Made by a program: the position numbers and the translations under genes | Part shown: piece after piece, positions 8,027-61,292 of the stretch | How the letters are laid out: each line of letters begins with the position of its first letter | Position numbering within the stretch: position 1 is the first letter of the stretch | IMG/VR virus record: IMGVR_UViG_3300018430_001101 | Span: 1 to 64,000 of that record | DNA from: a virus | Strand: one strand, 5' to 3' | Length of the DNA stretch: 64,000 nucleotides | Notes under the pieces: model-generated | What the model saw: only the letters and a program-made list of their open reading frames with translations | The model's database searches: none | What the model was told of the DNA's origin: nothing

Positions 8027-8216
8027 TCCCTTACCTCCTCAATCTGTGCCGCTGTGTCTCCCACAGGCTCCGTGTTTATTCCTGCCAGCCCCTCTGCCGT
8101 CCTGCTGCAGGTCATCTGCATCAAAAAAGGACCTGCGGCTGTTGCCGTAGATCCTCTGCTGTGTGTTTATCTTCTTTTCCCGGATGCCCGTGCCGTCGGC
8201 CTTCGTGGCCTGCTGC

Positions 8217-8375
8217 TCACACGAAGGGCAGCTCGTCAAGCTCCTCGTCCCATTCTTCCGGAAGTTCAGGATGTTCCGATTTCTCCGGTTCCCAGTCCTC
8301 CGGCGGCTCCGGCTCCCAGAACCTGCTGGGAAGCTCGCTCCTCACCGGTACAAGCTCTTTTCTCTGTTCTGCCAT
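8217..8375 (-). CDS. Hypothetical small acidic protein
   Basis: 52-aa product from internal ATG preceded by AGAGGAGGA SD; Trp/Glu/Pro-rich. Confidence 0.3.
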   Translation of the reverse strand: MAEQRKELVPVRSELPSRFWEPEPPEDWEPEKSEHPELPEEWDEELDELPFV

Positions 8376-8527
8376 CTCTTTGTCCTCCTCTGTTTTCTTC
8401 TGCTGTTGTTTCGGTTGCTGTGTCTGTATCTGCCTTGCCCTTGCTGTCCTGGTCCGGAAGGAGCGGCCCTTAAAACCGCCCCGTACTCTTTTGCCTCTGG
8501 CACCCTGCCCCATGCTGGCGGAATTTT

Positions 8528-8851
8528 TTAAATCCTGAAGGTGTAGGTGAGGTCCATCGCCTGCAGTTCCTTAAGCAGCTCCGCGCCACGCCTGATCTCG
8601 TCCGCCGTCCTGAGCAGTTCCTCGGCCGAAGGGCTGCCGCCCATCTTCCGGACGCTTGCCGCGACGTTCAGTTTTTCCTCGATGCGGCCTTCCCGCCAAT
8701 CGGTGTTCTCCGTGGCCTCGGTAGTAATGGTGAAGTTCATCTCATCGCTCAGGATCTCCGGGAATCCGCTCCATCCGGCCGCCTTGCCAGTCTCGAATCC
8801 GTGCCGCTCCGCTGCCTTTCTGACCGCTTCCCTTGCCTCTGTCCTTGTCAT
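8528..8851 (-). CDS. Hypothetical protein
   Basis: ATG at 8851 preceded by AAGGAGGG SD, downstream of promoter repeat copy A; the ORF-track N-terminal extension is translation of the repeat itself. Confidence 0.5.
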   Translation of the reverse strand: MTRTEAREAVRKAAERHGFETGKAAGWSGFPEILSDEMNFTITTEATENTDWREGRIEEKLNVAASVRKMGGSPSAEELLRTADEIRRGAELLKELQAMDLTYTFRI

Positions 8852-8936
8852 GTCCTTGCCCTCCTTTTGTTTTTTCATGCCCTGTGGTTGTTTCTGCTCG
8901 GTGGTCTTTCGCCGCTCCGGGGCTTTTGCTTTTTCC

Positions 8937-9013
8937 CCTTTCGGTATGTGCATATTAGCGTCATGTGGGGAGAATAGCCACGCCTGTGGGGAAAATAGAT
9001 CCCACAAAGATTG
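8937..9013 (-). promoter_or_regulatory. Conserved promoter repeat, copy A
   Basis: Consensus (transcript sense) TCTTTGTGnAATGTATTTTGCCCnCAGGCG-TGGATA-[12 variable nt]-GACGC-TAATAT-GCACATACCGAAAGG; -35-like hexamer, 17-nt spacer, -10 TAATAT. Confidence 0.65.
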
Positions 9014-9211
9014 AAAGCCACATCGCGCCTGCTTCTGGTGGTTGTGCACAGTCTGTGGATGTCGCACGGAGGACAAAGGAAAGCGGCTGCGCCTCCCCTT
9101 TCCGGGCCTATCAGCCGGTTTCCTTCACCCTCTGTGTTTCCTGCGGCGTTCCTGTACCGTCCCTGCGCTTTTTTTCGCCTGTTCCTTCCTCCGGTGACTG
9201 GAAGAACTGCC

Positions 9212-9526
9212 TCACTGGAAGTTGCCCCTGTAGATGTCGTAGGCGGCGAGGAACTTGGTGCGCCAGTCCCTGTTCTGCGTCTCAAGCCCGTAAGCTATGG
9301 CGTTCGCCATCCAGTACTCCATCCATCTCTTTGCCTCTTCTTCCGTACAGGACATCGTAAGCTCGATGAAGGTTTCTTTGCAGTCAGTGTAGTCTCCGCT
9401 CTGCCGCAGTGTTTTCTCCTTGTCGTGGTAGTCGATCAGGAAGGCAAGCATCCTGATGTCGTATGCCCCCGCTTTCGCCTTCGCAGTGAAGTCTGCGTCA
9501 AACCTCGTGAATTCGTATGCGTTCAT
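9212..9526 (-). CDS. Hypothetical protein
   Basis: 104-aa product MNAYEFTRFDADF...; start chosen at ATG after basic antisense-like N-extension. Confidence 0.45.
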   Translation of the reverse strand: MNAYEFTRFDADFTAKAKAGAYDIRMLAFLIDYHDKEKTLRQSGDYTDCKETFIELTMSCTEEEAKRWMEYWMANAIAYGLETQNRDWRTKFLAAYDIYRGNFQ

Positions 9527-9594
9527 TTCTTTCCTTTCCCAGCCTTTGCTGTGTGCTTTGTTTCTGCGGTTCTGCCCTGGTCTCCGTACCCTGC

Positions 9595-9885
9595 TCAACC
9601 CTGCGTCATCGCCCACATTGCGGCGCTTCCGTCGTCCTCGAATTCGACCGCGCTTGCTGCCCTCAGCCCGATGGTGCCTTCGCAGGTGTGGTCTTCGGTC
9701 AGGAATTCGTAGGCGGCCCCGAAGTAGCAGGGCTTTCCTTTCCCGCTGTAGTAATGCCCCGCGAGGATCACCCTGTCCCCGAAGGTCAGCACCTTTGACC
9801 ACCTGGTTTCCAGGTCTTCCGGCGTTGTGGGGTTCGGCAGCCTGTAGGTCCTCATTGCTTCTTTGATCGTCATCGTTTTTTCCAT
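9595..9885 (-). CDS. Hypothetical protein
   Basis: Start MEKTMTIKEAMRTYR at 9885 downstream of repeat copy B; upstream ORF-track extension is repeat-derived. Confidence 0.5.
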   Translation of the reverse strand: MEKTMTIKEAMRTYRLPNPTTPEDLETRWSKVLTFGDRVILAGHYYSGKGKPCYFGAAYEFLTEDHTCEGTIGLRAASAVEFEDDGSAAMWAMTQG

Positions 9886-9940
9886 CCTTTCCGCTTCCGC
9901 TGTGTTCCGCTTCCGCTGTGCTTTGTTTTCCTCTGTCTTC

Positions 9941-10016
9941 CCTTTCGGTATGTGCATATTAGCGTCATGTCCGCTGGATAGCCACGCCCTGCGGCAAAAT
10001 AAACTGCACAATCTTT
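9941..10016 (-). promoter_or_regulatory. Conserved promoter repeat, copy B
   Basis: CCTTTCGGTATGTGCATATTAGCGTCATG...GCCACGCCCTGCGGCAAAATAAACTGCACAATCTTTC on plus strand. Confidence 0.65.
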
Positions 10017-10128
10017 CAGGGCTGGATCTGGTGGTTCTGCACAGTCTGCGGATGCCCCGCGCAGGGCATAGAGAAACCGGCTGTGCACCCCCTTCAGAAG
10101 GTGCAGGCCGGTTCCCGGTGGTTTCCCT

Positions 10129-10332
10129 TTACTTCCCCATCCGCTCCCTGATGGCGTCCGCAAGTTCCGAGGCTTTCTGCAGGAGCTTCCTGATCTCCTC
10201 CGCTGCCTCGATGTCCTCCTCCCCGGCCCCGCTGAGGTCGTAGAAGACCTGGTGCAGCTTGTAGTCAAGCTCCGCTGCCGCCGTAAGCGCCTCGTCGCAA
10301 AGTCCGTACATCCTGGTTTCGTTTGCTGTCAT
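10129..10332 (-). CDS. Hypothetical small acidic protein
   Basis: 67-aa ORF downstream of repeat copy C. Confidence 0.45.
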   Translation of the reverse strand: MTANETRMYGLCDEALTAAAELDYKLHQVFYDLSGAGEEDIEAAEEIRKLLQKASELADAIRERMGK

Positions 10333-10422
10333 GGCTTTATCCTCCTCTGTTCTGGTGCCTGCTGTTTTGCTGTTCTGCTGTCCTGTTGTGTTCCCCCTCC
10401 GGGGCCTGCCGCAGGGCTTTTT

Positions 10423-10498
10423 CCTTGCGGTATGTGCATATTAGCGTCTGCGGGCGGCATTATCAACGCCTTGTTGAAAAATACATTGCACAAAGACC
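10423..10498 (-). promoter_or_regulatory. Conserved promoter repeat, copy C (best -35: TTGATA)
   Basis: Same consensus; -35 TTGATA, 17-nt spacer, -10 TAATAT. Confidence 0.65.
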
Positions 10499-10569
10499 GG
10501 AGGCCGTATTTGTGCAGTTATGACGATGGATGTCCACAAGCCACTGTCAGTTCAGAAGCCACTGTCAGT

Positions 10570-11121
10570 TCAGAAGCCGAAGTCGGCCAGATGGAACGGA
10601 TGCTTCCTGGGCAGCGGCTCGTGGCCGGCGGCGCGGCAAATCCCTGCGGCCTCATCGTCCGGGAGGATCCGCAGGACCTTCATGCTCCCCGCGATCACCC
10701 ATTTCCCGAGCATCTGCGGGCTGGTCTTATACCGGTAGAAGCCGCCCACGGGGATGTGTCCCAGCATCGCTTCCGACGGATGGAAAACACCGTCGCGCAT
10801 CCCGTTCCGGTCCGCCTCCGGCTGGTAGTCCACGGCGTCGGAATACTCGCACTCGCACCATGCCTCGTCATCATGCATGTAGCGGATCCTGCCGCCTTCC
10901 CGGATCCCGATGTGTATGGCAAGCGGGATGTCCGAGAGGTGCCAGCCGGAGCGGAACGCAAGTGGGCCGAGCTTCGACTTCACTTTGCCGGACGGCAGGC
11001 GCGGGCCTTCCTCGGCGGGGAGCCAGACCCCCATGGGGACCGGCCTGTCGGCGAGGACGTACAGCGGGAAGAGCCTGCCCGGATGCTTCTTCTTCAGTTT
11101 GAACAGCTTGTATCCGACCAT
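10570..11121 (-). CDS. Hypothetical protein (183 aa)
   Basis: Internal ATG at 11121 preceded by GGAAGGAGGA SD; Trp/Cys/His-containing globular-looking sequence; no family recognised. Confidence 0.5.
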   Translation of the reverse strand: MVGYKLFKLKKKHPGRLFPLYVLADRPVPMGVWLPAEEGPRLPSGKVKSKLGPLAFRSGWHLSDIPLAIHIGIREGGRIRYMHDDEAWCECEYSDAVDYQPEADRNGMRDGVFHPSEAMLGHIPVGGFYRYKTSPQMLGKWVIAGSMKVLRILPDDEAAGICRAAGHEPLPRKHPFHLADFGF

Positions 11122-11145
11122 CCCGTCCTCCTTCCGTGCCTCCGC

Positions 11146-11185
11146 GCCTCTGCGTCTCTGCGTCTCTGCGTCTTCGCGTCTCCGG
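11146..11185. repeat. Short tandem repeat (GCGTCTCT-like octamer x4-5) in 5' leader of 10570..11121
   Basis: Plus strand cctctgcgtctctgcgtctctgcgtcttcgcgtctcc. Confidence 0.5.
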
Positions 11186-11366
11186 TCCTCCGGTTCACCG
11201 GCTTCCGCAATTTCCCTGCCTCCCGGCCTGCCATCCACACGTGATGTGGCGGCTGCGTCCCACTAAAAAGGGAGCCTCCGAAGAAGCTCCCCGCTGTGTG
11301 CTGCATCTGCTGCCGCCCGTTCCATGTGTCCCTCTGCCCGGTGCCGTTCCTCTATCCTGTCCTGCC

Positions 11367-11777
11367 TCAGTTCACTTTGAACCGGAGTCCGCGGACCGTC
11401 TCCTCTTCCTCCGTGCCCCAGCGCCTTTCGATTCGGGTAAAGGCGCAGGCTCCTTCGAGCGTGCAGCCTTCCGCGATGAAGCTGTGGATGTTCCCCATGA
11501 CTGCCGTGCTCTGATTGCTGTAGATGAACTCGGTGATGCCCGCCCTGCGGAGGGTGCCGATGAAGTCCGCGACCTCCCTGTCCCAGAGGAAGTCGTTCAT
11601 CTCGAAGTCCGCGTTCCCTTTCTCAAGGCTGTATTCGTAGGCCCTGTAGGCTTTGTAGGCTCCGCTGCTGATGGGGTCCTCCATGGCTTCCTTCTCGGCG
11701 TACCAGGCTTTCAGCTCCTCGCTGTCCCATCCAAATTCCTCAATGATGCCTGCTTCTTCGCTTCGTGCTCTCCGCAC
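11367..11777 (-). CDS. Hypothetical protein (start uncertain)
   Basis: 136-aa ORF; overlaps upstream small ORF in another frame. Confidence 0.4.
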   Translation of the reverse strand: MRRARSEEAGIIEEFGWDSEELKAWYAEKEAMEDPISSGAYKAYRAYEYSLEKGNADFEMNDFLWDREVADFIGTLRRAGITEFIYSNQSTAVMGNIHSFIAEGCTLEGACAFTRIERRWGTEEEETVRGLRFKVN

Positions 11778-11885
11778 CTTCTGCCATGTTCGTACCCGGC
11801 CCGCTCAATTTCCGCGAAGTGCCCGTTGTCAGTGAAGTTCCTGTCCTGCGCTGCGTTCTGCTCCAGTGTCCTGATGTTCCTCATT
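11711..11885 (-). CDS. Hypothetical small protein (MRNIRTLEQNAAQDRNF...)
   Basis: ATG at 11885 with AGGAGG SD 7 nt upstream; first gene after repeat copy D; overlaps next ORF by 67 nt in different frame. Confidence 0.35.
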
Positions 11886-11976
11886 GTCTCTGCCTCCTCT
11901 TTCCGCCGGTCCCTCCCGGTCGCTTTGCTTTGCTTTGTTCTGCCTTGCTGAGTTCCTCTGCCGCAGGGGCTTTTCC

Positions 11977-12053
11977 CCTTTCGGTATGTGCATATTAGCG
12001 TCACACGGCAGTTATATCCACGCCTGTGGGCAAAATACATTTCACAAAGATTC
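11977..12053 (-). promoter_or_regulatory. Conserved promoter repeat, copy D
   Basis: Plus strand CCTTTCGGTATGTGCATATTAGCGTCACACGGCAGTTATATCCACGCCTGTGGGCAAAATACATTTCACAAAGATT. Confidence 0.65.
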
Positions 12054-12356
12054 GGCCTGATCCAGGGGCTGGTTTTGTGTATATTATGGCGGCCGGCAGG
12101 TGCGTCCTGAAGCCTCGTACAGCCCCTGTATCGCGCCGGGAGGCACATCCGCACCAACTGTCCATCTGCAGCCGCAGGACGCGGCACGGTCTGAATCCGA
12201 GGCACTGGGGCGCGTCCTGGGCGGCACATCTGGTCTGAGGTTCCCACGGTGTGGATGGCTTCCGCAGTGTGGATGGCTTCTGCATCAAGGACAGTTTCCA
12301 CAGCGGAAGAACCCGGAAAGAAGGAGGGGTTTTTTACCCCTCCTCCTCATTTCCGC

Positions 12357-12677
12357 TCACCTGTCGAGGATCATGTCGATCATCTGCGCGCTGCCGCAGT
12401 CAACATGCCCGTCATGCCATATGGCAATCCGGAGGTCGGCATCGATGTCCGGCAGGAAAAGCTCGTAGGTGACTGCCTCTGCTCCGCAGCGGATGCAGTC
12501 GTCCACCCTGCCGTAATACCAGAAGCTGTTCAGCTCCGTGAGCGTGCCGTCAGGCCTCCGGACCTTTGCGCCATGCCTGCGGAGGCGCTCGATGTGGAGC
12601 TGGTTTGTATCCATCTCCGGGGTGCCGGTGGTTCCGGCCGTCATGCCTGTTCCGTTTTCTGTGTTCATGTTCGTCAT
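12357..12677 (-). CDS. Hypothetical protein
   Basis: 106-aa ORF; AGGAGG upstream; second gene of unit E. Confidence 0.45.
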   Translation of the reverse strand: MTNMNTENGTGMTAGTTGTPEMDTNQLHIERLRRHGAKVRRPDGTLTELNSFWYYGRVDDCIRCGAEAVTYELFLPDIDADLRIAIWHDGHVDCGSAQMIDMILDR

Positions 12678-12696
12678 GGCTACATCCTCCTTTGCC

Positions 12697-12879
12697 TCAG
12701 CAGAATTCTATGGTCAGCATCCCGTCCCTTCCGAGGAAGAAGTCGTTCTGCACCAGCGGATCCTCAAAGAAGGTTTCCTTCGCTTCTTCCGTCATCCTCC
12801 TGAGCCTGTCCTCGCCTACCAGCTCTTTTACCGCCTTGCGGGTGGTTTTCTTTCCGTCCAGGTAAAACCTTGTTTTCAT
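12697..12879 (-). CDS. Hypothetical small protein
   Basis: 60-aa ORF directly downstream of repeat copy E, SD GGAAGGGAG. Confidence 0.4.
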   Translation of the reverse strand: MKTRFYLDGKKTTRKAVKELVGEDRLRRMTEEAKETFFEDPLVQNDFFLGRDGMLTIEFC

Positions 12880-12951
12880 GCCTGCTCCCTTCCTGCGCTT
12901 TTTCTTCCTGCGCCGTGTGCCTCTGTCCGGTTCCCCTCGCCGGTTCCTTCC

Positions 12952-13027
12952 CTCAAGGTATGTGCATATTAGCGTCGGTGGGCTGTATTATCCACGCCTG
13001 CGGGCAAAATACATTCCACAAAGATGG
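12952..13027 (-). promoter_or_regulatory. Conserved promoter repeat, copy E
   Basis: Plus strand CTCAAGGTATGTGCATATTAGCGTCGGTGGGCTGTATTATCCACGCCTGCGGGCAAAATACATTCCACAAAGATGG. Confidence 0.65.
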
Positions 13028-13135
13028 GGCGGCATTGGTGCCTGGATTCTGGCAGATATACACACTGGATCTGCGGCATCCGGAGGGCTCCGGGATGGCG
13101 TAATGTACACAAAAGCCGGGGCGTCAGGAGCGGGA

Positions 13136-13210
13136 AAGTTTGTGTACATTACTTTCGCGCAGGGCGTGGATATATCCCCGGCGTGACGCTAATATGCACA
13201 CAACAAAAGG
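13136..13210 (+). promoter_or_regulatory. Conserved promoter repeat, copy F (inverted, drives plus-strand gene)
   Basis: AAAGTTTGTGTACATTACTTTCGCGCAGGGCGTGGATATATCCCCGGCGTGACGCTAATATGCACACAACAAAAGG; -35 TGGATA 13167-13172, 17-nt spacer, -10 TAATAT 13190-13195. Confidence 0.65.
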
Positions 13211-13262
13211 AAAACACACCGGCCGCAGGGCCGGGACGCACGCCGCACAGGAGGGAAAAGCC

Positions 13263-13565
13263 ATGACAGTAGCCACCACAACAGCAACAGCCACCACAGC
13301 GAGGAAGCCTTACACAGAGGTCGAGGCGCTCATCGAGAAGGAGATCGAAAAGGAAAGCGAACTTTACGACCTTGACATTTACGACATCAACGACATCCGC
13401 CTGGAAATCTACAGAGCGAACGGCTGGAGCTACGACCCCTGGCCGGAAGGAGAAGAAGAAGAGGACGAGGAAGACGTCTTCGACCCGGATGAAGAACCCT
13501 GGTTCCACCGGGACCCCTACTACGAATACACCGAGCGGGGCCTGAGCTTCTGGGATTTCGTCTGA
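13263..13565 (+). CDS. Hypothetical acidic protein (only plus-strand gene in this half)
   Basis: ATG at 13263 preceded by GGAGGGAAAAGCC; 100 aa, Asp/Glu/Trp/Tyr-rich. Confidence 0.5.
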   Translation: MTVATTTATATTARKPYTEVEALIEKEIEKESELYDLDIYDINDIRLEIYRANGWSYDPWPEGEEEEDEEDVFDPDEEPWFHRDPYYEYTERGLSFWDFV

Positions 13566-13741
13566 ACCGCCCGCAGGGTGCTCCTTCTGGGGGCCTCCTG
13601 CCCACAGTGATCTCCTGCCCCACACGGTGGCCTCCTGCCCCACAAGGCTTGCCCAGTCCAGGCACGGCATCTGCCGGGCCTGCTCCCTCCGTAGCTTTTC
13701 ATGCGGCGTGCATACCGCCGGATAAAGTGCCGGTTCCAGCC

Positions 13742-13813
13742 GGAATCTTTGTGTACTTTATGCCGGCGGTTTTTGTTGCTATACGTTGCGCCTGACGGTA
13801 ACATGTCCATAAG
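13742..13813 (+). promoter_or_regulatory. Degenerate eighth copy of promoter repeat (copy H), plus strand, no obvious downstream gene
   Basis: GGAATCTTTGTGTACTTTATGCCGGCGGTTTTTGTTGCTATACGTTGCGCCTGACGGTAACATG: -35 TTGCTA 13776-13781, 17-nt spacer, -10 TAACAT 13799-13804 (same -10 variant as copy G). Confidence 0.45.
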
Positions 13814-13963
13814 ATGAGGAGGGGACGTTTTTTACAAAAGGCCCCCTTTGCCAGCCGGAAGCTTCGTAGTTCCCGAGGCTCCCGGCCGGCTTTTTCTCTT
13901 TATGCACGCAGGTTCCCGTCATCCTGCCGGCTTTCGTTTCACTCTCCGGTACAGGGTAGCGCG

Positions 13964-14383
13964 TCAGGAAGTCCGGAAGACCTCCTTCGGGGGCTCGCCG
14001 CTCCCGATCCTGAACCGCAGCAGCTTCCCGCTGAGAGTCCTCGCGAACATTTCCGGGTACCGGAACATCCCCCTGAACTTCTCCACAAGATCGTCCGGCA
14101 GGTCCGCAAAATTGTCACGGCTGAGCCCGCAGACAAAGAACGTCCCGCAGACGATGTCGTAATCGCCCAGCATCCGGTTCGGCTGGGAGCCTTTCAGCTT
14201 TGCTTCGTCGTCACAGACCAGCGCCGCGTATTCAGGCCACGGATAGACTGCCTGCAGCGTCCCCCCGACGATTTCCTGCATGGCTCTGAGCGTATGCGGG
14301 ACCACCCGAAGCTCCGGCTCCTTCATCGGCTCGACCACGAGGATGCGGATGGTTTCCACGTTTTCCTTCTTCACTGCGGCCAT
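13964..14383 (-). CDS. DUF3846-like protein
   Basis: MAAVKKENVETIRILVVEPMKEP...LRAMQEIVGGTLQAVYPW...ALVCDDEAKL..PNRML resembles the DUF3846 family pattern (from memory); SD AGGAGGGAGG. Confidence 0.6.
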   Translation of the reverse strand: MAAVKKENVETIRILVVEPMKEPELRVVPHTLRAMQEIVGGTLQAVYPWPEYAALVCDDEAKLKGSQPNRMLGDYDIVCGTFFVCGLSRDNFADLPDDLVEKFRGMFRYPEMFARTLSGKLLRFRIGSGEPPKEVFRTS

Positions 14384-14862
14384 CTCCCGCCTCCCTCCTG
14401 CGGCACCCTGACCGCCGCCCATTCCATCAGCGGGAGCTTCCTTTTGATGAAGCCGCTGTCCTCGAGTGCCTCAATCTGGCCGCACCGGCCGCAGACCATG
14501 ATGTCCAGCCTCCGGGAAAGCGCGTGCGCATACAGCTTCCCCGGCATCTGTACCCCGCACCTGGGGCATCTCGCCCCGTCGTGCTGTGCGGCGGCATACC
14601 GCAGGAGCGTCGCCTTCGCCTCTTCCTCCGTGCGGATCTTGTGGCAGGTATCCGCTCCCCATGCCACGCTTAAGCTGCTCCCCGTGTCCCAGTGGCAGCA
14701 GATGGATCCTGCATCGTCAACCCCCGTGCACACTCCCTGCGTGCCGGGTGGGATGTGTGTATAAGGATCATCCATATGGTCGAGGACGATCCTGCACCCC
14801 TTCGGGTATTCCCTCCGCAGACGTTCCACCGTGCCCCTGTCCGGAAAGTTCATTATGCCCAT
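14371..14862 (-). CDS. DUF4314-like domain protein with C-terminal CxxC...CxxC zinc ribbon
   Basis: RLRREYPKGCRIVLDHMDDPYTHIPPGTQGVCTGVDDAGSICCHWDTGSSLSV resembles DUF4314; CPRCG...CGRCG; SD GGAAGGAGG before ATG 14862. Confidence 0.55.
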   Translation of the reverse strand: MGIMNFPDRGTVERLRREYPKGCRIVLDHMDDPYTHIPPGTQGVCTGVDDAGSICCHWDTGSSLSVAWGADTCHKIRTEEEAKATLLRYAAAQHDGARCPRCGVQMPGKLYAHALSRRLDIMVCGRCGQIEALEDSGFIKRKLPLMEWAAVRVPQEGGGRWPQ

Positions 14863-14910
14863 TTGTGCCTCCTTCCTGCGTTTCCCTCGCCGCCTGTTCA
14901 CCCGGCTCCA

Positions 14911-15408
14911 TCACTGCCCGTCCTTCCGGCTCCTTTTAAGCGCGTCCTCCAGCACATGCATCGGCAGGCCGAGGTCCCTGTAAGCCCTCTCGATGATCCC
15001 GTAGTAGAGCGGGGAAGGCTCCCGGAGGCCGCCTTTGAAGTTCATGACGTATGCCATCCCTTCGCCCTGCAGCTCGTTCCCGTCCTCATCCCACACGGAG
15101 AACCTGACGTCCTCCTTCCGGTAAAGCTCCGGGTAGCCCTCGTAGCGGTCGAGCGCCTTCTCGTCCGATGCGGAGACCGCCCACACAAGGACCGGGGTGC
15201 TCTTCTTCTCATCTTCCCGGATGTTGGCGTACTCCTTAAACTCCAGCTCCCACCCATGGAGGATGCCGGCCCCGACCACCTCCGCGTCAGGGCAGCGCCT
15301 CTCCATCATGCCGGTGTCCAGGTTGCTGCCGTACGCGACGTATACCTTCTTCGTGCCGATCCGTTTCAGGATCTCCTTCGTATTAAGCTTCATGTTCTGC
15401 TTCTTCAT
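14911..15408 (-). CDS. Gamma-glutamyl cyclotransferase-like (GGCT/AIG2 fold) protein 1
   Basis: N-terminal VYVAYGSNL (YGSNL signature) and LDRYEGYPELYRKEDV (catalytic Glu context) of GGCT/AIG2-like family. Confidence 0.7.
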   Translation of the reverse strand: MKKQNMKLNTKEILKRIGTKKVYVAYGSNLDTGMMERRCPDAEVVGAGILHGWELEFKEYANIREDEKKSTPVLVWAVSASDEKALDRYEGYPELYRKEDVRFSVWDEDGNELQGEGMAYVMNFKGGLREPSPLYYGIIERAYRDLGLPMHVLEDALKRSRKDGQ

Positions 15409-15506
15409 TCCCGTTCCTTTCTGCCGCCCAGCGGCCTCCGTTTTTTTTCCACGGTTTTAGTGGTTTTAAGGGTTTTTAGCTGTTGTGGTGTTCCGCGGGC
15501 TCCCAC

Positions 15507-16061
15507 TCACCTGCCATCGGTTCCTGCCTCGTAATCCGCCAGCCACGCATCCGCAGCCGCATACCCGATGCTGTCCTCGAGGGCTCTGTGGAGAGGTCCT
15601 TTTTCAAATCCCCACCGTCCATAGCCTCCGTCAAGGAGCCGGTAGTACTCTGCGGAAGGCGCTCCGAGGGGCCTGTCCTCGCGGAGGATGTACGCGATGC
15701 ACTTCCTGGGCTTTTTCAAAGTCCTGCCCGAAAGGCCCTTCACCTTCAGCAGGAACTCCCTCTTGTAGTACCATTGCGGGCATCCCTCATAATAGTCGAG
15801 CCTCGCCTCGTCGCTCTCCGTCATGCGGTAGATGGCGAGCGGGACCCGGCTGTTGGCGTCCTGCTCGATGGTGGCGTAGAACCCGGAGGCGCTCCTTTTG
15901 AACAGGAGCCTCCATCCTTCGAGCACGGCCGTGCCGATGGGCTTCGAGCGCGGGCACCTCGCTTTCATCCTCTCCAGGTCCAGGTTGCTGCCGTATGCCG
16001 CGTAGAAGACCTCCCCGTTCCCGCCGTTCCAAAACCTCATGTTCTTCCAGATGCCGTCCAT
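15507..16061 (-). CDS. Gamma-glutamyl cyclotransferase-like (GGCT/AIG2 fold) protein 2
   Basis: VFYAAYGSNLDLERM and RLDYYEGCPQWYYKREF; start at ATG 16061 preceded by GAGGAGG. Confidence 0.65.
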   Translation of the reverse strand: MDGIWKNMRFWNGGNGEVFYAAYGSNLDLERMKARCPRSKPIGTAVLEGWRLLFKRSASGFYATIEQDANSRVPLAIYRMTESDEARLDYYEGCPQWYYKREFLLKVKGLSGRTLKKPRKCIAYILREDRPLGAPSAEYYRLLDGGYGRWGFEKGPLHRALEDSIGYAAADAWLADYEAGTDGR

Positions 16062-16183
16062 CGCCTTGTCCTCCTCTGCCACGCCGTTGTCCGCAGTTTC
16101 CGTTCCTTTGAAATCCGTCTGCCTCCCATCCCTTCCCCGCCGGCACGTCCTCCGGCGGGGCTTCCCTTCTGCCTGCCCTGCGC

Positions 16184-17119
16184 TCAGACTCCGTGCCGCC
16201 ATGCGCTGCTCCCCTCGAAGTTCCTCAGGAAGTATTCCCTCGCTGTCTTGAATTCGTCCCCGATGAATCCGAGGCGGAGCATGAAGCATCTGAACCCGTA
16301 GGTCTCGTTGTCGCGCTGGCCCTTTTTAGGGCTTGCGTACCTGACCTCCTTGGCAAGCTCGCTGAGCGCGAGGCAGAGCTGGATCATGGCCCGCAGCTGC
16401 CCGGCATGAAGGCCGCCTTTTCTGCCGTTCCCTGCAGAGTCAAAGTTAAAACAGCGGAATTCGATTGTGTGGAACCTCGTGAAGTAGCTGTGCAGGTTGC
16501 ACATCCTGTACCGCGTCTGTGAGTAATGGCCGTTCTCGACCGGGCCGTTGTACCAGCACCTTGCAAGGGCCGCCTTCGTCTTCGGCTTCGTCCTGTTAAG
16601 GCGTTCGAGGAAATCCGGGTCGACCGTGCGGCAGTAGTTCTGCTCCCTCGCCCTGCTGACCTCGACCGCTTTCAGGAGCTGGTCTTCATGCGCCGCCATG
16701 AGGTTGACCAGGTTGCGGATCGTGGCAGGCGTATGCCCGTCCCCTCCGATGTGGATGTGAATTCCACACATGTGCTCCTTGTCGCTTTTCCCTCCCGCGT
16801 GCCTGATCTGGCGGATCAGCTCCTGCAGGGTTTCCATGTCCGCGTACCGGAGGACCGGCGTCACAAGTTCGCAGCGTTCCTCGTCCCTGTCCGCCCGGAT
16901 GCTCGAATCCCTCTGGAACTTCCATTCGCGGCCCTGCGCGTCCCATGCGCTCCAGGTCTGGTAGCCGTTGGCGTGTGCCGTGTATTCGTACCTGCCGGTT
17001 CCGAAGTACCCTGCGGCCGTCTTTGCCGCGTCCCTCCGGGTGATCCCGTACATCTCGATCTCCGTGCCGAATGTCTGCTGCTTCATGTTCCCGATCTGCT
17101 TCGCTGTCTTCTCTGTCAT
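16184..17119 (-). CDS. Glutamine-synthetase-like amidoligase (Amidoligase_2 / YbdK-GCS2-related carboxylate-amine ligase family)
   Basis: N-terminal TFGTEIEMYG (G.E.E strand characteristic of GS/GCS2-type ligases), MCGIHIHIGGDGH, Arg-rich C-terminal half; 311 aa; AAAGGAG SD; first gene after repeat copy G. Confidence 0.6.
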   Translation of the reverse strand: MTEKTAKQIGNMKQQTFGTEIEMYGITRRDAAKTAAGYFGTGRYEYTAHANGYQTWSAWDAQGREWKFQRDSSIRADRDEERCELVTPVLRYADMETLQELIRQIRHAGGKSDKEHMCGIHIHIGGDGHTPATIRNLVNLMAAHEDQLLKAVEVSRAREQNYCRTVDPDFLERLNRTKPKTKAALARCWYNGPVENGHYSQTRYRMCNLHSYFTRFHTIEFRCFNFDSAGNGRKGGLHAGQLRAMIQLCLALSELAKEVRYASPKKGQRDNETYGFRCFMLRLGFIGDEFKTAREYFLRNFEGSSAWRHGV

Positions 17120-17173
17120 GGCCTGGCTCCTTTCAAATCCCCGCTCCCGGCGGGCGGCTTTTTTTGCTTTTCC

Positions 17174-17250
17174 CCTTTCGGTATGTGCATGTTACCGTCA
17201 GGTGGGGCAGGAGCCAAGTCATAGTTTGAACATATATTTCACAAATATCT
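17174..17250 (-). promoter_or_regulatory. Conserved promoter repeat, copy G (drives amidoligase operon)
   Basis: Plus strand CCTTTCGGTATGTGCATGTTACCGTCAGGTGGGGCAGGAGCCAAGTCATAGTTTGAACATATATTTCACAAATATCTG; -10 variant TAACAT. Confidence 0.6.
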
Positions 17251-17422
17251 GTGTTTTGTGACGCCATGTATTTGTGCAGTTTATGGCGGTTTTTCCGGGG
17301 ATCTGTTGATAGTTTTCCGGCAGTCCGGGCTTGTTTTTTCGGCGGTTCCGGCCGCCTTTCTCCCACAGTGTCCGTGGCGGCATCGTTAATTAGTTGTCAA
17401 TCCCCGGCGATGGGCGCAATGG

Positions 17423-18514
17423 TCACACTGCCGGAGCCTCAGCATTCTCTGCCGTGTCAGTGGTGCCTTCGGTTTCTGTGGCTTCCACAGCGTCTTCGGC
17501 AGGAGCGGATCCGAAAGCATCTGCTGCGGCCGCGGCCCTCGCCGCCAGCCTCTTCTGCTTCGCTTTCTCGGCATCCTCCGGAGTTCGGAACGCGCTGTGC
17601 CCTGCAAGGGGATCCAGCAGGATCCTGCGCGCTTCCCTGTATTCCCCTCCGCCCATGCCGATGCGTACCATCCACACCCGGAAGGAGTACTTCTCGTTCG
17701 TGTCATCCACGGCCTTGGCAGCGATCCGTTTCTGCCGCAGGGCTGCCGAGTTGATCCTCTCCGCAAGCTGCATGAAGGCCTTCGTCTTTTCCGGCTCATC
17801 CGCCTGCGGGAATCCCGTGAAGATGACTTTCTCAGGTGTCAGCACGAGGCCGGTCATGGAAGGCCCGCCGGTGCTGTCCTCATACATCCCGACTGCCCTG
17901 CGGAAGTCCTCTGCGGTGTAGAGATCCCCGGCTTCATCCAGGGCTTTCAGGAGGCCCGCGTTGATGCCGAAATGACCGCCCGTTGACCTGGTAAGGAGCT
18001 TCCCCCTGCTGTAGATGGTGTTCACGAGGTTCCGCAGGGTCTGTGCGTTGTGGCTGCCCGCAGGCAGGCTGATTGCAAGGTCGTAGATGGCATTGTAGTC
18101 ATAAGGCTGTTCTTCCATGCGGTCCTCTACCTTCCCTGACGCACCTTCGCCCTCTTCGGTTTCTGCTTCCACGGCGGGTTCACCTTCCGGGACGGCCTCT
18201 TCTTCCACAGTAGTCTGCTCCTCTGCCTCAGTGGTCTGGTCTTCTGTGGTCTGCTTCTTTGACTCTGCGGCGTGTGCCTCAGTCGCCGGCGTCTCTCCGG
18301 CTTCGATCAGTCCTTCGTCGATCAGCGTCTGGAGGATCTGCCAGTCCGCTTTGTCCTCTTCGGCCGTGAGCCTGCCGTCCATCTCGATGGCGTAGTCCCC
18401 GACCAGGTAGGCGCACCTCGGGACGTATGTGTAAACCGCCTTTGTCCCTGTCAGTTCCTCCAGCCGCTTCTTTACGGCTTTCCTGTCATCCACTTTCTTT
18501 CTGAATTCCAGCAT
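17423..18514 (-). CDS. Hypothetical protein (363 aa) with acidic linker
   Basis: ATG 18514 after AAAGGAGACG SD; no family recognised. Confidence 0.45.
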   Translation of the reverse strand: MLEFRKKVDDRKAVKKRLEELTGTKAVYTYVPRCAYLVGDYAIEMDGRLTAEEDKADWQILQTLIDEGLIEAGETPATEAHAAESKKQTTEDQTTEAEEQTTVEEEAVPEGEPAVEAETEEGEGASGKVEDRMEEQPYDYNAIYDLAISLPAGSHNAQTLRNLVNTIYSRGKLLTRSTGGHFGINAGLLKALDEAGDLYTAEDFRRAVGMYEDSTGGPSMTGLVLTPEKVIFTGFPQADEPEKTKAFMQLAERINSAALRQKRIAAKAVDDTNEKYSFRVWMVRIGMGGGEYREARRILLDPLAGHSAFRTPEDAEKAKQKRLAARAAAAADAFGSAPAEDAVEATETEGTTDTAENAEAPAV

Positions 18515-26322: not shown

Positions 26323-26377
26323 TTGAACCTCCTCTGCCCGGTTTCTATCCTGTGTTCCACTCCCGTCCGGCATCCGC

Positions 26378-26614
26378 CTAACAGATCCCTGCATTGCTTA
26401 ACACCTGCAAGGGCGGTACCCGGAGAGAAATACCGGGATCTGTCCCATATATCCCAGGGGATTCAGGAACCAGTGAAACATAGTCCGCAGTAATCCCGTA
26501 TTTCAGGAGGATATAAAGCAGTACTGCTACGCATGCGGCCAATATGATCAGCGCAAATATTGAAATGCCAGTGAGGACACAGCATTCTGCTTCGAAGGCA
26601 GCTGCCGGACTCAT
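26378..26614 (-). CDS. Small membrane protein (one TM; holin-like candidate)
   Basis: ISIFALIILAACVAVLLYILL hydrophobic helix. Confidence 0.35.
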   Translation of the reverse strand: MSPAAAFEAECCVLTGISIFALIILAACVAVLLYILLKYGITADYVSLVPESPGIYGTDPGISLRVPPLQVLSNAGIC

Positions 26615-26704
26615 TTTCCAAGTCCTTTCGCCCGTCCTTATGATTGATCCCCTGCTTCTGCACATGCCGCACCTCCTTCACATCCGCCCTTCTGCTGATG
26701 ATCT

Positions 26705-43442: not shown

Positions 43443-43970
43443 TTACGGAACGCACATGAGTTCAGGAACCAAACTGCTTTGCATTCTCAATCTGAATTGA
43501 ATCTCCTCCCTGACAGCTTCTATCCCTTTTCTTTTTATGCGTTTTATTGTGATAATTGAAAGCCCGTATTTTTCCATGGCTTCTTCAAACGACAACTTCT
43601 CAAAGAATAAATCCTTGATGATCTCCCTGTCCCGATCAACTTCTTTCCCAGACAGTCTTTCAGAAAGTGCAACGTCCACGATGCCTTCTAATTCCATGTT
43701 CATAAGATAATCCCGCAGCACCTTTTTATCACGGGCAGACAGGATATCTCCCCGAAGGGCGTGCATAAGCCTTGTGGAAATCTCAACATCTGAAAGCCCG
43801 TTATTGACTCCAAATGTCCTCAACAGTGACGGCCTGTTCTTCTCTATCAATCTGCGTTCACGGATGAACCTGTTATACGAAAAGAGCATTTTCTTTTCTG
43901 CCCCGTCCTGGGACAGGTATTTAATGGTTCCCTCGCTAAACGGAAGATCCAAATAATATCCCCCATTCAT
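43443..43970 (-). CDS. ArpU/sigma-70 region-4-like transcriptional regulator (candidate late-gene activator)
   Basis: C-terminal LSFEEAMEKYGLSIITIKRIKRKGIEAVRE helix-turn-helix resembling sigma region 4 / ArpU family. Confidence 0.55.
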   Translation of the reverse strand: MNGGYYLDLPFSEGTIKYLSQDGAEKKMLFSYNRFIRERRLIEKNRPSLLRTFGVNNGLSDVEISTRLMHALRGDILSARDKKVLRDYLMNMELEGIVDVALSERLSGKEVDRDREIIKDLFFEKLSFEEAMEKYGLSIITIKRIKRKGIEAVREEIQFRLRMQSSLVPELMCVP

Positions 43971-44662
43971 GTACTTTGCCTCCTCTCCCTTTCCATTTCT
44001 GTGTTCAGTTTATGCATCATTCTTGAATCCCCCATTCCTGCATTTAAAAGCCTGATCTGCCCCTCCAATGCCCGAAGCACTTCTTTCCGTATCCCGTTGA
44101 TGTCCCGGTCGTAGATCCTCCCCTTCCCCGGATTGTCCTCCCGGATGCTCCGGTAGGTCCTGCGCTTCACAAAGAGGTTCCTGAAAAACCACCGCTCCTT
44201 TGAGGACATCCTCTCCTGCATCGCGGCTTCCACGATCCCGATCTTCCACTCGGCATACGCCAGCTCCTCCACGTTCCTTGCCGCCTCCCATTCGAGCTGC
44301 TTCTGCCGCTTCTCCACATACCCGGATGCCAGCTTCTCCGCGATCCTCGCCGTCTGGTCGGACTGGTTGCTGGTCTGCACGTGCTCCCCTCCTGATCCCG
44401 GGGTGATGGATAAAAGCTCCTCGATCGCCATGTCCTTTGTGAACACCTGGCGATGTGCGAGGAGCTTCCTGATGTTGTCCCGTGTGGTGATAAGGTTCCC
44501 GTATGTCCTTGCGAGGTGCAGCGCGGCGGCAGGGAAGTCAATAGTCGGGGGCTGTTCCGATCCTTCGGCTGTTCCTGAGTCACTGTAATTGTCCATGATT
44601 CTTTCAGGTGCCATATTGTCTGTATCGCTCATCCTGCCGCCCTCCTTCCCGGCATATTCCAA
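43967..44662 (-). CDS. Putative transcriptional regulator (sigma-like C-terminus), hypothetical
   Basis: 4-nt overlap with downstream ArpU-like gene; C-terminal DINGIRKEVLRAL. Confidence 0.35.
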   Translation of the reverse strand: MEYAGKEGGRMSDTDNMAPERIMDNYSDSGTAEGSEQPPTIDFPAAALHLARTYGNLITTRDNIRKLLAHRQVFTKDMAIEELLSITPGSGGEHVQTSNQSDQTARIAEKLASGYVEKRQKQLEWEAARNVEELAYAEWKIGIVEAAMQERMSSKERWFFRNLFVKRRTYRSIREDNPGKGRIYDRDINGIRKEVLRALEGQIRLLNAGMGDSRMMHKLNTEMERERRQST

Positions 44663-61195: not shown

Positions 61196-61292
61196 CAGGT
61201 ATGGTTGGAAGGCGTATGCTTATGATCAAAGTGATCATGCAAAACTTACACAAGTCTCCTGGAGAAGCCAGGATTAGAAAGAGGTGAAAAGA

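Follow-up and report, generated by a model that had tools for sequence, protein, structure and literature searches.

Repeated elements upstream of terS

The window analysed here, the whole stretch of 64,000 nt, comes from a temperate-type phage of gut or rumen Clostridia whose genes run along the minus strand. Pfam matches identified terS, terL, portal and ClpP genes, the early genes share their strand, and an immunity region of the CI/Cro/ImmA type is present in the window. A sequence-only reading had proposed that seven near-identical promoters and one degenerate copy punctuate the small-gene region. Repeat finding and anchored alignment confirmed the seven strong copies in the places originally given: six direct copies were recovered at 8929-9007, 9933-10011, 10415-10493, 11969-12047, 12943-13021 and 17166-17244, and inverted matches of these led to 13134-13213. 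The 20-mer GGTATGTGCATATTAGCGTC matched the window seven times with up to three mismatches, compared to 0.00 matches expected from 100 shuffles. The degenerate copy, for which no position had been supplied, was located at 13746-13819 on the plus strand (TTGCTA-N17-TAACAT; nhmmer E 7e-6 to 1e-9), and relaxing the search of the 64 kb to E<=50, with filters switched off, revealed no copy beyond these eight.

Alignment of the copies bore out the proposed conserved flanks around 12 unconserved nucleotides, which show 31-35% pairwise identity (mean 0.35, the chance level). Mean pairwise identity was 0.67 in the upstream 30-nt block (0.76 among c1-c5), 0.71 in the -35 hexamers (TGGATA three times, TGGCTA twice, TTGATA and TTGGCT), 0.90 in the 26-nt block from GACGC to AAAGG (GACGCTAATATGCACATACCGAAAGG; 0.94 among c1-c5), and 0.40 in the 15 nt 3' of this block. 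The spacing between -35 and -10 is exactly 17 in all copies, as had been claimed, and positions -11 and -7 are A and T, respectively, in all copies; of the copies, c3 alone (9/12) was picked up by a simple scan for the sigma-70 consensus, and the others scored 8/12. Copies and downstream gene starts share the same orientation throughout (c8 has no convincing ORF), and the distance from element end to first start codon was 53-93 nt, close to the earlier figure of 60-100 nt. The length of ~75 nt was too short, however; the conserved unit spans ~75-120 nt and adds a box near -90, an UP-like A/T tract and a 5' mRNA hairpin.

The array begins with c6 (17174-17247, minus strand; -35 TTGGCT at 17212-17217, -10 TAACAT at 17189-17194, predicted +1 at ~17182), which precedes an operon of amidoligase, GGACT, GGACT, DUF4314 and DUF3846 genes starting at 17119; its box O3 (CATAAACTGCACAAATAC, 17268-17285, minus strand) repeats the -10/start motif of this copy 89 nt farther upstream. 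The sole strong copy on the plus strand is c7 (13137-13210; -35 TGGATA at 13167-13172, -10 TAATAT at 13190-13195, predicted +1 at ~13202, box O3 at 13099-13117), followed by a 100-aa gene (13263-13565, plus strand) and arranged back-to-back with c5. No convincing ORF was found downstream of the degenerate plus-strand copy c8 (13746-13819; -35 TTGCTA at 13776-13781, -10 TAACAT at 13799-13804); since a hairpin and T-run follow at ~13845-13900, only a short transcript would result, antisense to the 3' end of the DUF3846 operon.

The remaining copies are on the minus strand. Copy c5 (12951-13024; -35 TGGATA at 12989-12994, -10 TAATAT at 12966-12971, predicted +1 at ~12959, weak box O3 at 13053-13067) precedes genes of 60 aa (12697-12879) and 106 aa (12357-12677). 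Copy c4 (11977-12050; -35 TGGATA at 12015-12020, -10 TAATAT at 11992-11997, predicted +1 at ~11985, box O3 CATAATATACACAAAACC at 12071-12088) is followed by a 57-aa ORF (start 11884), a DUF7698 gene (11367-11777) and a terminator-like hairpin at 11269-11292. The best sigma-70 match, c3 (10423-10496; TTGATA-17-TAATAT, -35 at 10461-10466, -10 at 10438-10443, predicted +1 at ~10431, box O3 at 10506-10522), lies before a 67-aa gene (10129-10332), and c2 (9941-10014; -35 TGGCTA at 9979-9984, -10 TAATAT at 9956-9961, predicted +1 at ~9949, box O3 at 10033-10046) lies before an Nmad4-domain gene (9595-9873) and a 104-aa gene (9212-9526). The terS-proximal copy, c1 (8937-9010; -35 TGGCTA at 8975-8980, -10 TAATAT at 8952-8957, predicted +1 at ~8945, box O3 at 9040-9053), is followed by three small ORFs (8528-8851, 8217-8375 and 8039-8239) and then by terS (7562-8026), terL (4766-7486), portal (2534-4132) and a ClpP-like protease gene (1380-2537). 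The suggestion that this last copy reads into terS/terL held, as no minus-strand terminator-like site was found between 8937 and 8026.

Conservation in related phages

A profile of the window copies revealed 215 further copies in 62 terS-anchored related viral contigs. The family profile gave 225 matches in all, 215 of them in these 62 loci, and every one of these 215 is on the terS strand and upstream of terS (215 matches in 402 kb upstream versus 0 in 447 kb downstream); the copy nearest to terS lies a median of 764 nt before it. An amidoligase homologue is directly preceded by a copy in L035, L048 and L016, and by a diverged copy in L058. The leader, including its hairpin and ribosome-binding site, is conserved in relatives as an expression cassette, often with an intrinsic terminator just before it; the gene content between copies varies, and the elements show a 1.7-fold enrichment of homology breakpoints. 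The anatomy of the elements, their copy number, the rules of orientation and position, and their conservation across the phage lineage are direct observations, while transcription start sites and promoter activity are predictions.

Within the promoter core, the -35 of relatives alternates between TGGAC/TGGATA and near-consensus TTGACT/TTGCTA/TTGATA, and the spacer carries no information. The part that is invariant across subfamilies is ATATG(C/T)ACA, not TAnnnT, and in one subfamily GATATA/ATATAT aligns with the -10, which makes a poor sigma-A hexamer and counts against the explanation favoured below. TGYRCA-type boxes were confined to three positions in 138 unique units (~-8, -50/-65 and -85/-95), with O2 (TTTGTG) inverted relative to O1 and O3 (CACATA/CACAAA). 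A second -10-like box was present in 61/138 units compared to 13/138 when shuffled, with 78-79 and 89-91 nt as the favoured distances. The A/T tract at -57..-47 (AATGTATTTT) matches the distal UP subsite at 9/11 positions and may function as an UP element. Furthermore, a 5'-proximal hairpin (dG<=-6, start within +1..+5) was found in 67% of 113 unique leaders and in 6% of shuffles. Its stems differ in sequence (GGGC/GCCC, CGG/CCG, CCGC/GCGG, GCC-GAAA-GGC), and it probably has a stabilising role, protecting the mRNA 5' end.

A probable co-regulated promoter set and its alternatives

Taken together, these data suggest that the elements are probably sigma-A-type promoter cassettes of the host RNA polymerase, forming one co-regulated set that includes the late packaging promoter. 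All eight would be copies of one cassette, transcribed by a sigma-A/sigma-70-type holoenzyme of the host polymerase. From its upstream end, the unit would comprise box O3 near -90, similar to the -10/start block; TTTGTG and the A/T tract; GGCG and a sub-optimal -35 (TGGATA, TGGCTA, TTGATA or TTGGCT); 12 free nucleotides; GACGC and the -10 hexamer TAATAT or TAACAT; GCACAT and the predicted start A, 7 nt past the -10 hexamer; a transcript that starts with ACCGAAAGG and forms a small hairpin at its 5' terminus, the loop often being GNRA; and a purine-rich leader with the ribosome-binding site. With these cassettes, the 8.4-kb accessory region would be divided among at least seven independent transcription units, covering the amidoligase/GGACT/DUF4314/DUF3846 operon, the Nmad4 and DUF7698 genes and the small ORFs, and the terS-proximal copy would double as promoter of the packaging and morphogenesis operon.

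Regulation of the cassettes and its timing are a further step. We infer a co-regulated set because the CI/Cro/ImmA-type immunity region implies that the late operon must be silent in the lysogen, and because conservation extends far beyond sigma-A contacts, to GGCG, GACGC, the whole -17..+9 block and the TGYRCA-type boxes. In addition, the cI-side promoter of the same phage is a perfect TTGACA-17-TGcTATAAT, so the 8-9/12 match of the elements represents a conserved deviation; this, together with the excess conservation, makes activator dependence plausible. A DNA-binding factor encoded by the phage may activate the whole set after induction, in a manner similar to the Ltr (RinA/ArpU/LtrA-C) late activators, whose targets at the terS promoter are short repeats.

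A weak candidate for the regulator is the 175-aa protein encoded at 43443-43970 (minus strand), the C-terminus of which matches Sigma70_r4 and resembles Ltr family II (LtrA) late activators. The proteins here had been labelled ArpU/sigma-like; the ArpU part of that label is not supported, since the first has Sigma70_r4 (Pfam E 9e-9) and weak sigma models as its only matches, none of them an ArpU model, and the second (43967-44632) matches no family. No close relatives of the 175-aa protein were detectable, and syntenic 164-aa homologues in L086 and L088 share 27-31% identity. In L038, L040 and L039, SNF2 is followed directly by a MazF-like gene and D5 primase, and the 221-aa/r4 gene pair is missing from the slot; these relatives carry seven, seven and (in a short stretch of L039) one element copies, which disfavours the 175-aa protein as an obligatory factor. 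A DUF1492/Sigma70_r4 (LtrB-type) gene lies 3.3 kb upstream of the diverged array of L058, and no regulator linked to the element by co-occurrence was found in the relatives.

That no regulator co-occurs with the element also suits a possible, if doubtful, alternative in which the copies are strong, factor-independent host promoters of moron-like, self-sufficient units, active constitutively or immediately on DNA entry, with the extra conservation serving promoter strength and mRNA 5' function and not a regulator. An UP element and 17-bp spacing might suffice for such activity, and the invariant A at -11 and T at -7, the 9/11 match of the A/T tract to the UP consensus, the near-consensus TTGACT/TTGCTA -35 of many relatives, the conserved leader-hairpin-RBS cassette with its frequent preceding terminator, and the anti-defence-type accessory genes (amidoligase, DUF4314, DUF3846, Nmad4) agree with it. 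However, packaging and head genes and, further downstream, lysis genes would then be expressed from c1 in a CI/Cro/ImmA lysogen, the -35 of the window's subfamily is conservedly sub-optimal (TGG...) while the repressor gene of the same phage has a perfect consensus promoter, and the near-invariant GACGC and -6..+9 segments lie beyond sigma-A contacts.

Multi-copy repressor sites have precedents in the stoperators of mycobacteriophage L5 and the CIR operators of phiC31. The TGYRCA/CACA(A/T)A boxes at -8, ~-55 and ~-90 could likewise be operators of a non-CI phage repressor that shuts all eight promoters in the lysogen, possibly by looping; we consider this unlikely. One box overlaps -10/+1, a classical repressor position, and the restriction of the boxes to three positions, the inversion of O2 and the two O3-O1 spacing peaks ~10-11 bp apart fit such an arrangement. 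Against it, the elements lack the cI-type operator TTGCTGTCA, of which three copies lie at 61106-61176, a search of the immunity region found no box-like motif, and no candidate repressor was identified; moreover, the -8 box may be a discriminator/start sequence and the -55 box may belong to the UP tract.

Phages also replace or appropriate sigma factors, as with T4 gp55 and MotA/AsiA and with SPO1 gp28. A phage sigma factor or sigma-appropriating system acting in place of sigma-A, with GGCGTGGA(T/C) as -35 element and GACG(C/G)TAATATG(C/T)ACA as -10 element, is nonetheless very improbable. The conserved blocks are longer than, and unlike, sigma-A hexamers, their invariant part is not TAnnnT, and the window encodes the protein with a sigma region-4 match; but that protein has no region-2 match and its slot is empty in element-bearing relatives, and sigma-A fits both the -35/17/-10 geometry and the way the -35 drifts to TTGACT/TTGCTA.

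Hardly credible is a non-promoter identity (a MITE-like mobile repeat, a pac/TerS-binding repeat or a structured RNA motif): the many copies adjoin terS, cassette content varies and breakpoints are enriched, but terminal inverted repeats and target duplications are absent, orientation is strictly gene-linked with position fixed relative to start codons, the element has no Rfam match and no common RNA structure (6/7 copies fold no better than shuffles, z +0.10 to -0.77), and a hypervariable 12-nt core within invariant flanks is unlike a product of transposition or gene conversion. Of ~185,000 species-representative genomes, 2 contain the exact 20-mer, a single time each, so that there is no MITE-like spread, and 3 metagenome contigs also carry it; the earlier view of a promoter-type and not a mobile element is upheld by this, by the -35/17/-10 geometry, by the gene-linked orientation and by the 215/215 copies upstream of terS.

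Relation to known promoter systems

UP-element-assisted sigma-70/sigma-A promoters and clustered strong phage promoters are known from rrnB P1, the SPO1 host-takeover module and T7 A1-A3. The cassettes share with them the -35/17 bp/-10 core, the A/T tract and the many short operons with their own promoters, and differ in the conservedly sub-optimal -35, the absence of a proximal UP subsite and the conservation of GGCG, GACGC and -6..+9, which lies outside those models. In T4 middle promoters a MotA box replaces the -35; these, too, form a multi-copy class that combines a good -10 with a conserved non-canonical motif at or near -35, which implies a phage factor, but the motif differs, the -35 can be near-consensus in relatives, and no MotA/AsiA homologues were seen.

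The Ltr families (RinA, ArpU, LtrA/Sigma70_r4, LtrB/DUF1492 and LtrC) act at terS late promoters of Gram-positive temperate phages (PMC3753634; Ferrer 2011, PMC3152322), where the activators bind 7-nt repeats and family II is Sigma70_r4 (Quiles-Puchalt 2013, PMC3753634). Similarly, the present array, in a temperate-type phage of Firmicutes, has a terS-upstream promoter heading the packaging/morphogenesis operon, promoter regions with short repeated boxes, and a lineage encoding small proteins with Sigma70_r4-type C-termini, including the DUF1492 protein of L058. Dissimilar from the single promoter of Ltr systems, there are eight over 8.4 kb; the r4 gene lies ~26 kb upstream of c6 and ~34 kb upstream of c1, whereas known ltr genes are immediately upstream; the boxes are of mixed orientation and widely spaced (40-50 nt apart), not 2-4 clustered 7-nt direct repeats; and relatives exist that retain the element and lack the r4 gene in its slot, with activator dependence here putative.

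The promoter-early/stem-loop composite cassettes (PeSLs) of T4-type phages (Arbiol 2010, PMC2839356; Comeau 2014, PMC4122927) are also composites of promoter and hairpin, repeated many times around small variable ORFs, mostly unknown, in a plastic region; a terminator lies just upstream in many relatives of the window phage, and cassette gene content re-assorts among related phages. The sequences are unrelated, however, and the present cassettes are in an HK97-like temperate-type phage of a Clostridia-type Firmicute host, their stem-loop is downstream of the start in the 5' mRNA and not only an upstream terminator, one copy also drives the late structural operon (as predicted), and recombination at the elements is weakly suggested by the breakpoints and by cassette presence/absence. 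Altogether, the recurrence of the cassette in dozens of related uncultivated phages indicates a real phage promoter family, which is previously undescribed and conceptually ordinary.

Predicted promoter elements of the small-gene array

Seven strong copies of one promoter cassette (hereafter the element) had been placed at 8937-17250 by the sequence-only reading, and all seven were recovered at those sites: repeat finding over 8000-18500 returned a six-member direct family together with inverted matches to 13134-13213, and the 20-mer GGTATGTGCATATTAGCGTC, with up to 3 mismatches, occurred 7 times in the window vs 0.00 expected. Copies c1-c6 lie on the minus strand, c1 being nearest terS and c6 the first of the array, and c7 lies on the plus strand. 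A degenerate copy that had been mentioned without coordinates was located at 13746-13819 (+) and reads TTGCTA-N17-TAACAT (c8), and an unfiltered profile search at E<=50 recovered no further copies in the 64 kb.

When the copies were anchored on the sense strand, mean pairwise identity was 0.67 in the 30-nt upstream block (TCTTTGTGnAATGTATTTTGCCCnCAGGCG; 0.76 among c1-c5), 0.71 in the -35-like hexamer (TGGCTA twice, TGGATA three times, TTGATA and TTGGCT), 0.35, the chance level, in the 12 nt after that hexamer, 0.90 in the GACGCTAATATGCACATACCGAAAGG block (0.94 among c1-c5) and 0.40 in the 15 nt beyond it. The earlier description of conserved flanks around a hypervariable spacer was thereby reproduced almost to the letter. 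The spacer between the hexamers measures 17 bp in all eight copies, the -10 is TAATAT or TAACAT, and the -35 agrees with TTGACA at 4-5 of 6 positions; c3 alone reaches 9/12 in a sigma-70 consensus scan. Transcription is predicted to start about 7 nt after the -10. The reading of the element as a promoter is well supported by its geometry, position, orientation and lineage-wide conservation.

Across the 138 unique units of the family alignment, information is concentrated in G.TAATATG.ACA(C/T)A.CG.AAGG and in a -35 region cgT(T/G)G.taT, and the spacer is essentially without information. By subfamily, the -35 alternates between TGGAC(T)/TGGATA, preceded by GGCG, and the near-consensus TTGACT, TTGCTA or TTGATA, which is the behaviour expected of a true -35. 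The consensus of the distal UP-element subsite is AWWWWWTTTTT, and the tract AAATGTATTTT, which occupies -57..-47 if +1 is set 7 nt after the hexamer, fits it at 9/11 positions; given this fit, the conserved upstream box of the sequence-only reading would most simply be an alpha-CTD (UP) site plus a TTTGTG motif. The -10/start motif also recurs further upstream, as cATAAyaTGCACAAA in the window and CATAATATGTACAA in relatives. This second motif (<=3 mismatches of 11) is present in 61/138 units vs 13/138 shuffled controls, at preferred distances of 78-79 nt (27 units) and 89-91 nt (13 units). TGYRCA-type hexamers in the units are confined to about -8, -50/-65 and -85/-95, and the resulting boxes at about -8, -55 and -90 (O1, O2 and O3) stand in mixed orientation. 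Many relatives carry an intrinsic terminator directly before the upstream box. The unit is larger than first reported, with the upstream box and a 5' hairpin included. No convincing fit of the element to sporulation-sigma, ECF, Rex, CRP or LexA-type consensus sequences was seen by eye. Just upstream of box O3 of c3, CTTCTGAACTGACAGTGG is present twice as a tandem duplication (10541-10576, -).

With few exceptions, the phage or prophage genes of the window are on the minus strand; the phage is HK97-like and of temperate type (P27-family terS, ClpP protease). At the far end is a region of immunity type, in which a Cro-like HTH gene (58542-58886, -) faces a CI-like HTH gene (61293-61673, +), after which comes a gene for a 638-aa ImmA/IrrE-type M78 peptidase with multiple zinc ribbons (61763-63679, +). 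Leftward from there run the early genes: DUF2800 nuclease, Enc34-type SSB, family A DNA polymerase, DUF932, SNF2 helicase, a 221-aa protein, a 175-aa Sigma70_r4 protein, a MazF-like protein, D5-type primase-helicase, SAM synthetase, NrdD, SPOR-domain cell-wall enzymes and two DNA methylases. Intein-type insertions occur in three genes (4766-7486, 18799-21915 and 32418-37058, all -): in terL, Hint and LAGLIDADG_3 separate the ATPase domain from the nuclease domain, the C5 DNA methylase carries Hint_2, Hom_end, LAGLIDADG and Intein_splicing, and NrdD, an anaerobic ribonucleotide reductase, carries Intein_splicing and a C-terminal glutaredoxin. At 25348-29925 (-), three consecutive cell-wall-type genes each have a SPOR domain, joined to a GH114-like domain, to a metallo-beta-lactamase fold, and to Amidase_2 with a phage tail lysozyme domain, respectively; the trio sits in the middle of the early/DNA-metabolism region and not after the tail genes. 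A homologue of its third gene lies downstream of a single element copy in a locus from a Blautia MAG (L082). The whole window is without tRNAs.

Each copy but one is followed by genes. Copy c6 precedes the amidoligase, two GGACT proteins, DUF4314 and DUF3846; c5 precedes 60-aa and 106-aa ORFs; c4 a 57-aa ORF and a DUF7698 protein; c3 a 67-aa ORF; and c2 an Nmad4 protein and a 104-aa ORF. On the plus strand, c7 precedes a 100-aa ORF and c8 is without an ORF. The last copy, c1, heads three small ORFs, terS (Terminase_4), terL, the portal gene and a ClpP-like protease gene. In 7/8 window copies, 53-93 nt separate the end of the element from the first start codon with an RBS. It had been proposed that the last copy reads through into terS/terL, and this holds, since the stretch from c1 to terS is free of terminator-like sites on the minus strand.

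Distribution among relatives and the 5' hairpin

TerS relatives were collected from IMG/VR with 10-kb flanks (L001-L080), and an nhmmer profile built from the seven copies gave, after one iteration, 225 matches in 65/83 sequences. In the 62 terS-anchored loci with matches, 215/215 copies lie on the terS strand and upstream of terS, that is, 215 copies in 402 kb upstream vs 0 in 447 kb downstream, and the copy closest to terS stops 372-2527 nt short of it (median 764). Copies number 1-10 per contig on at least 64 contigs, with a maximum of ten per 10 kb in L073. A copy in front of the amidoligase operon is found also in three relatives (L035, L048 and L016), and a diverged one in a fourth (L058). 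Eighteen loci gave no match; 10 of these have <600 nt upstream, and L058 carries a diverged version of the array. The array is truly missing from L001-L004, the closest TerS relatives, and it is therefore common in the lineage, not universal.

A dispersed mobile repeat of MITE type, the distribution that the sequence-only reading had named as contrary to a promoter, would be expected at many places in host chromosomes, with terminal inverted repeats and target duplications, both of which the element lacks. Among ~185,000 GTDB species genomes, the exact 20-mer occurs only in two rumen MAGs (Lachnospiraceae bacterium and Blautia sp.), once each, and it is present in 4 copies on 3 metagenome contigs. 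This rarity, together with the strict orientation and position of the copies, rules out a MITE-like distribution. The exact 20-mer was not found in IMG/VR, where the copies in relatives were detected with the profile, and a megablast against 50,697 GenBank phages for close annotated relatives returned a single 114-nt match, inside the C5 methylase. At 640-1000 of the Lachnospiraceae MAG locus (L081), the element is cut off upstream at the -45 region and abuts another ORF, the start of which resembles by eye an aldo/keto reductase N-terminus; because the small gene behind the element is also shortened, the truncation is probably a recombination or insertion scar.

Leaders, the predicted 5' mRNA stretches before the start codon, were folded per sequence with shuffled controls, in place of consensus folding; RNAalifold on 88 leaders gave no consensus structure, the leaders being too heterogeneous to align. 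A hairpin of dG<=-6 kcal/mol with its first paired base in +1..+5 was found in 67% of 113 unique leaders vs 6% of shuffles, and the mean dG was -7.9 vs -3.1 kcal/mol in shuffles. The stems differ between subfamilies, being CGG-AA-GGGC...GCCC-n-CCG, CCGC...GCGG or GCC-GAAA-GGC in relatives and CCG..GGGG...CCCC..CGG, or a mini-hairpin CC-GAAA/GCAA-GG, in the window; it is therefore structure, not sequence, that the leaders keep. The conserved CCGAAAGG would supply the 5' arm of the predicted 5'-terminal stem-loop together with its GNRA loop. Such a stem-loop classically shields an mRNA from 5'-end-dependent decay, and we infer an mRNA-protecting role for that of the element. In L025, L080 and similar relatives, the purine block AAAGCGAAGGGAG is the RBS of a very short leader.

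That the element itself is a structured RNA was also considered and was rejected, as six of the seven copies fold no better than shuffles (z +0.10 to -0.77); c7 alone reaches z -2.7, via O2/O1 pairing. Rfam gave 0 matches at the gathering threshold in the 64 kb. The leader hairpin of c7 (13219-13234; CCGGCC-GCAG-GGCCGG) is terminator-like on the minus strand, where TGTGTTTTCC follows, and it may also stop minus-strand transcripts heading toward c5. The only hairpin-less leader, that of c2, contains the tandem duplication CACAGCGGAAGCGGAA x2 (9889-9920, -).

Control of the elements and candidate regulators

The cI-side promoter (61168-61196, +) is a perfect TTGACA-17-TG-c-TATAAT with a TG extension, and three operator half-sites of TTGCTGTCA type (61106, 61142 and 61168 rc) overlap and flank it. 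The local RNA polymerase thus evidently reads the canonical consensus, and the 8-9/12 match of the elements, with its conserved TGG -35, is a maintained deviation. Direct control by CI is not indicated, because the CI-type operator TTGCTGTCA is absent from the elements; TGYRCA-type boxes are likewise absent from the immunity region. Constitutive activity of c1 appears unlikely, because the phage has an immunity module and this copy heads its packaging/morphogenesis operon.

Activator dependence of the elements, as suggested by the sequence-only reading, is plausible. In Firmicutes, the Ltr superfamily comprises RinA, ArpU, LtrA (Sigma70_r4), LtrB (DUF1492) and LtrC; no phage protein other than a member of this superfamily is required to activate the terS promoter, in which these activators recognise 2-4 short (7-nt) repeats (PMC3753634). 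Like an Ltr late promoter, c1 stands before terS at the head of the late operon, with three small ORFs between. Ltr systems, however, have the activator gene directly upstream of the terS promoter and clustered 7-nt direct repeats just distal to that gene, whereas the Sigma70_r4 gene of the window lies ~34 kb upstream of c1 and the boxes of the element are of mixed orientation at about -8, -55 and -90. By analogy, an Ltr-like activator would nonetheless be a reasonable model for the elements.

The ArpU/sigma-like proteins at 43443..44662 had been put forward as this activator, and neither the label nor the assignment fared well. The 175-aa protein at 43443-43970 (-) (hereafter the r4 protein) matches Sigma70_r4 (E 9e-9) and phrog_36 'transcriptional regulator', with weak sigma-model matches confined to region 4; it has no match to ArpU, DUF1492 or region 2, and the adjacent 221-aa protein matches no family, so that 'ArpU' is a misnomer. 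The r4 protein evolves fast, as illustrated by word-based searches, which recover the protein itself alone, and by the syntenic 164-aa proteins of L086 and L088, which are 27-31% identical to it; tblastn found no annotated phage relatives. In L058, the compact relative with the diverged array, the gene after SNF2 encodes a DUF1492 + Sigma70_r4 protein that is bona fide LtrB-type, and no similarity between it and the r4 protein was detectable, hhalign being not significant. In three further loci (L090, L100 and L097), SNF2 is followed directly by the MazF-like gene and D5, and the 221-aa/r4 pair is missing. L090 and L100 belong to the same contigs as L038 and L040, which carry seven copies of the element each, and L097 to that of L039, with one copy in its short stretch. 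Co-occurrence therefore does not tie the r4 protein to the elements, and its role as their activator is doubtful.

Just downstream of the Sigma70_r4 gene stands an extended -10-like site, TGTGCTATTAT (43365-43382, -), followed by ~100 nt without a good ORF and by a strong terminator-like hairpin with TTTTTT (43242-43271, -); a small RNA or a micro-ORF could be encoded in this region (about 43240-43385, -). At 42389-43111 (-), a gene for a 240-aa PemK/MazF toxin-domain protein separates the helicase/regulator slot from the D5 primase gene; it is kept there in all relatives examined, and no obvious antitoxin was noted.

Two other sources of a regulator were discarded. The 363-aa gene adjoining c6 on its upstream side (17423-18514, -) encodes a divergent second amidoligase (phrog_2443, E 1e-30), missed by Pfam and without a PDB relative, and it is kept at the same position in 34 loci. 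The small ORFs of the array were dropped as regulators after no DNA-binding family was found in them.

Cassette behaviour and significance

Single-linkage tblastx clustering of the cassettes collapsed to one cluster, and strings of ORF families between successive elements were used instead. These strings, which rest on crude ORF calls, differ widely among relatives; by the same crude calls, the DUF7698 protein family ('A') and family 'P' appear as stand-alone cassettes or fused to neighbours. On the metagenome contig L085, three elements lie in 2.5 kb and the Nmad4 cassette sits directly before terS, and this contig is thus without the c1 cassette of the window. Homology breakpoints fall within elements (+/-25 nt) in 21% of cases vs 12% expected, a measure that is biased by the similarity of the elements and in which the events are non-independent.

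The promoter/stem-loop cassettes (PeSLs) of T4-type phages offer a precedent (PMC2839356, PMC4122927). Here too, a composite of promoter and stem-loop is repeated between small variable ORFs, most of them without a known function, and 8 copies share 8.4 kb; in contrast to the T4-type PeSLs, the element has an unrelated sequence and belongs to an HK97-like phage of temperate type. The behaviour of the cassettes resembles that of PeSLs, and by this analogy recombination at the elements is a candidate process.

Three roles may be envisaged for the array. First, accessory/anti-defence-like genes and the packaging/morphogenesis operon may be placed under one factor that reads the TGYRCA-type boxes or the -17..+9 block, a scheme that may amount to the Ltr switch spread over many promoters instead of one. 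Second, each gene cassette may receive a built-in 5' mRNA stabiliser. Third, the element may be a recombination handle for cassette exchange among phages, and would then correspond, in temperate phages of Firmicutes, to the T4 PeSLs. That all three hold jointly, as a lineage-wide module of gut/rumen Clostridia phages, we consider unlikely.

The element is an undescribed example of a familiar class, that of multi-copy, lineage-specific phage promoters or regulatory cassettes, and it is set apart by its layout of three boxes, by the hairpin built into the mRNA 5' end and by the presence of the predicted late promoter among the copies. Repeated, lineage-specific phage promoters are well known, and no general concept is changed. 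If the reading is right, it would provide a map of transcription units and predicted starts for a large group of uncultivated Lachnospiraceae-/Blautia-type phages, and the cassette of promoter, UP tract and 5' hairpin could be tried as an expression part in gut Clostridia that are hard to engineer. The search for the late-gene regulator of the lineage would then have a defined target in the TGYRCA boxes and the GGCG/GACGC positions, and the mosaicism of the cassettes could serve to test, for temperate Firmicutes phages, the role of promoter repeats as drivers of accessory-gene exchange that has been proposed for T4-like PeSLs.
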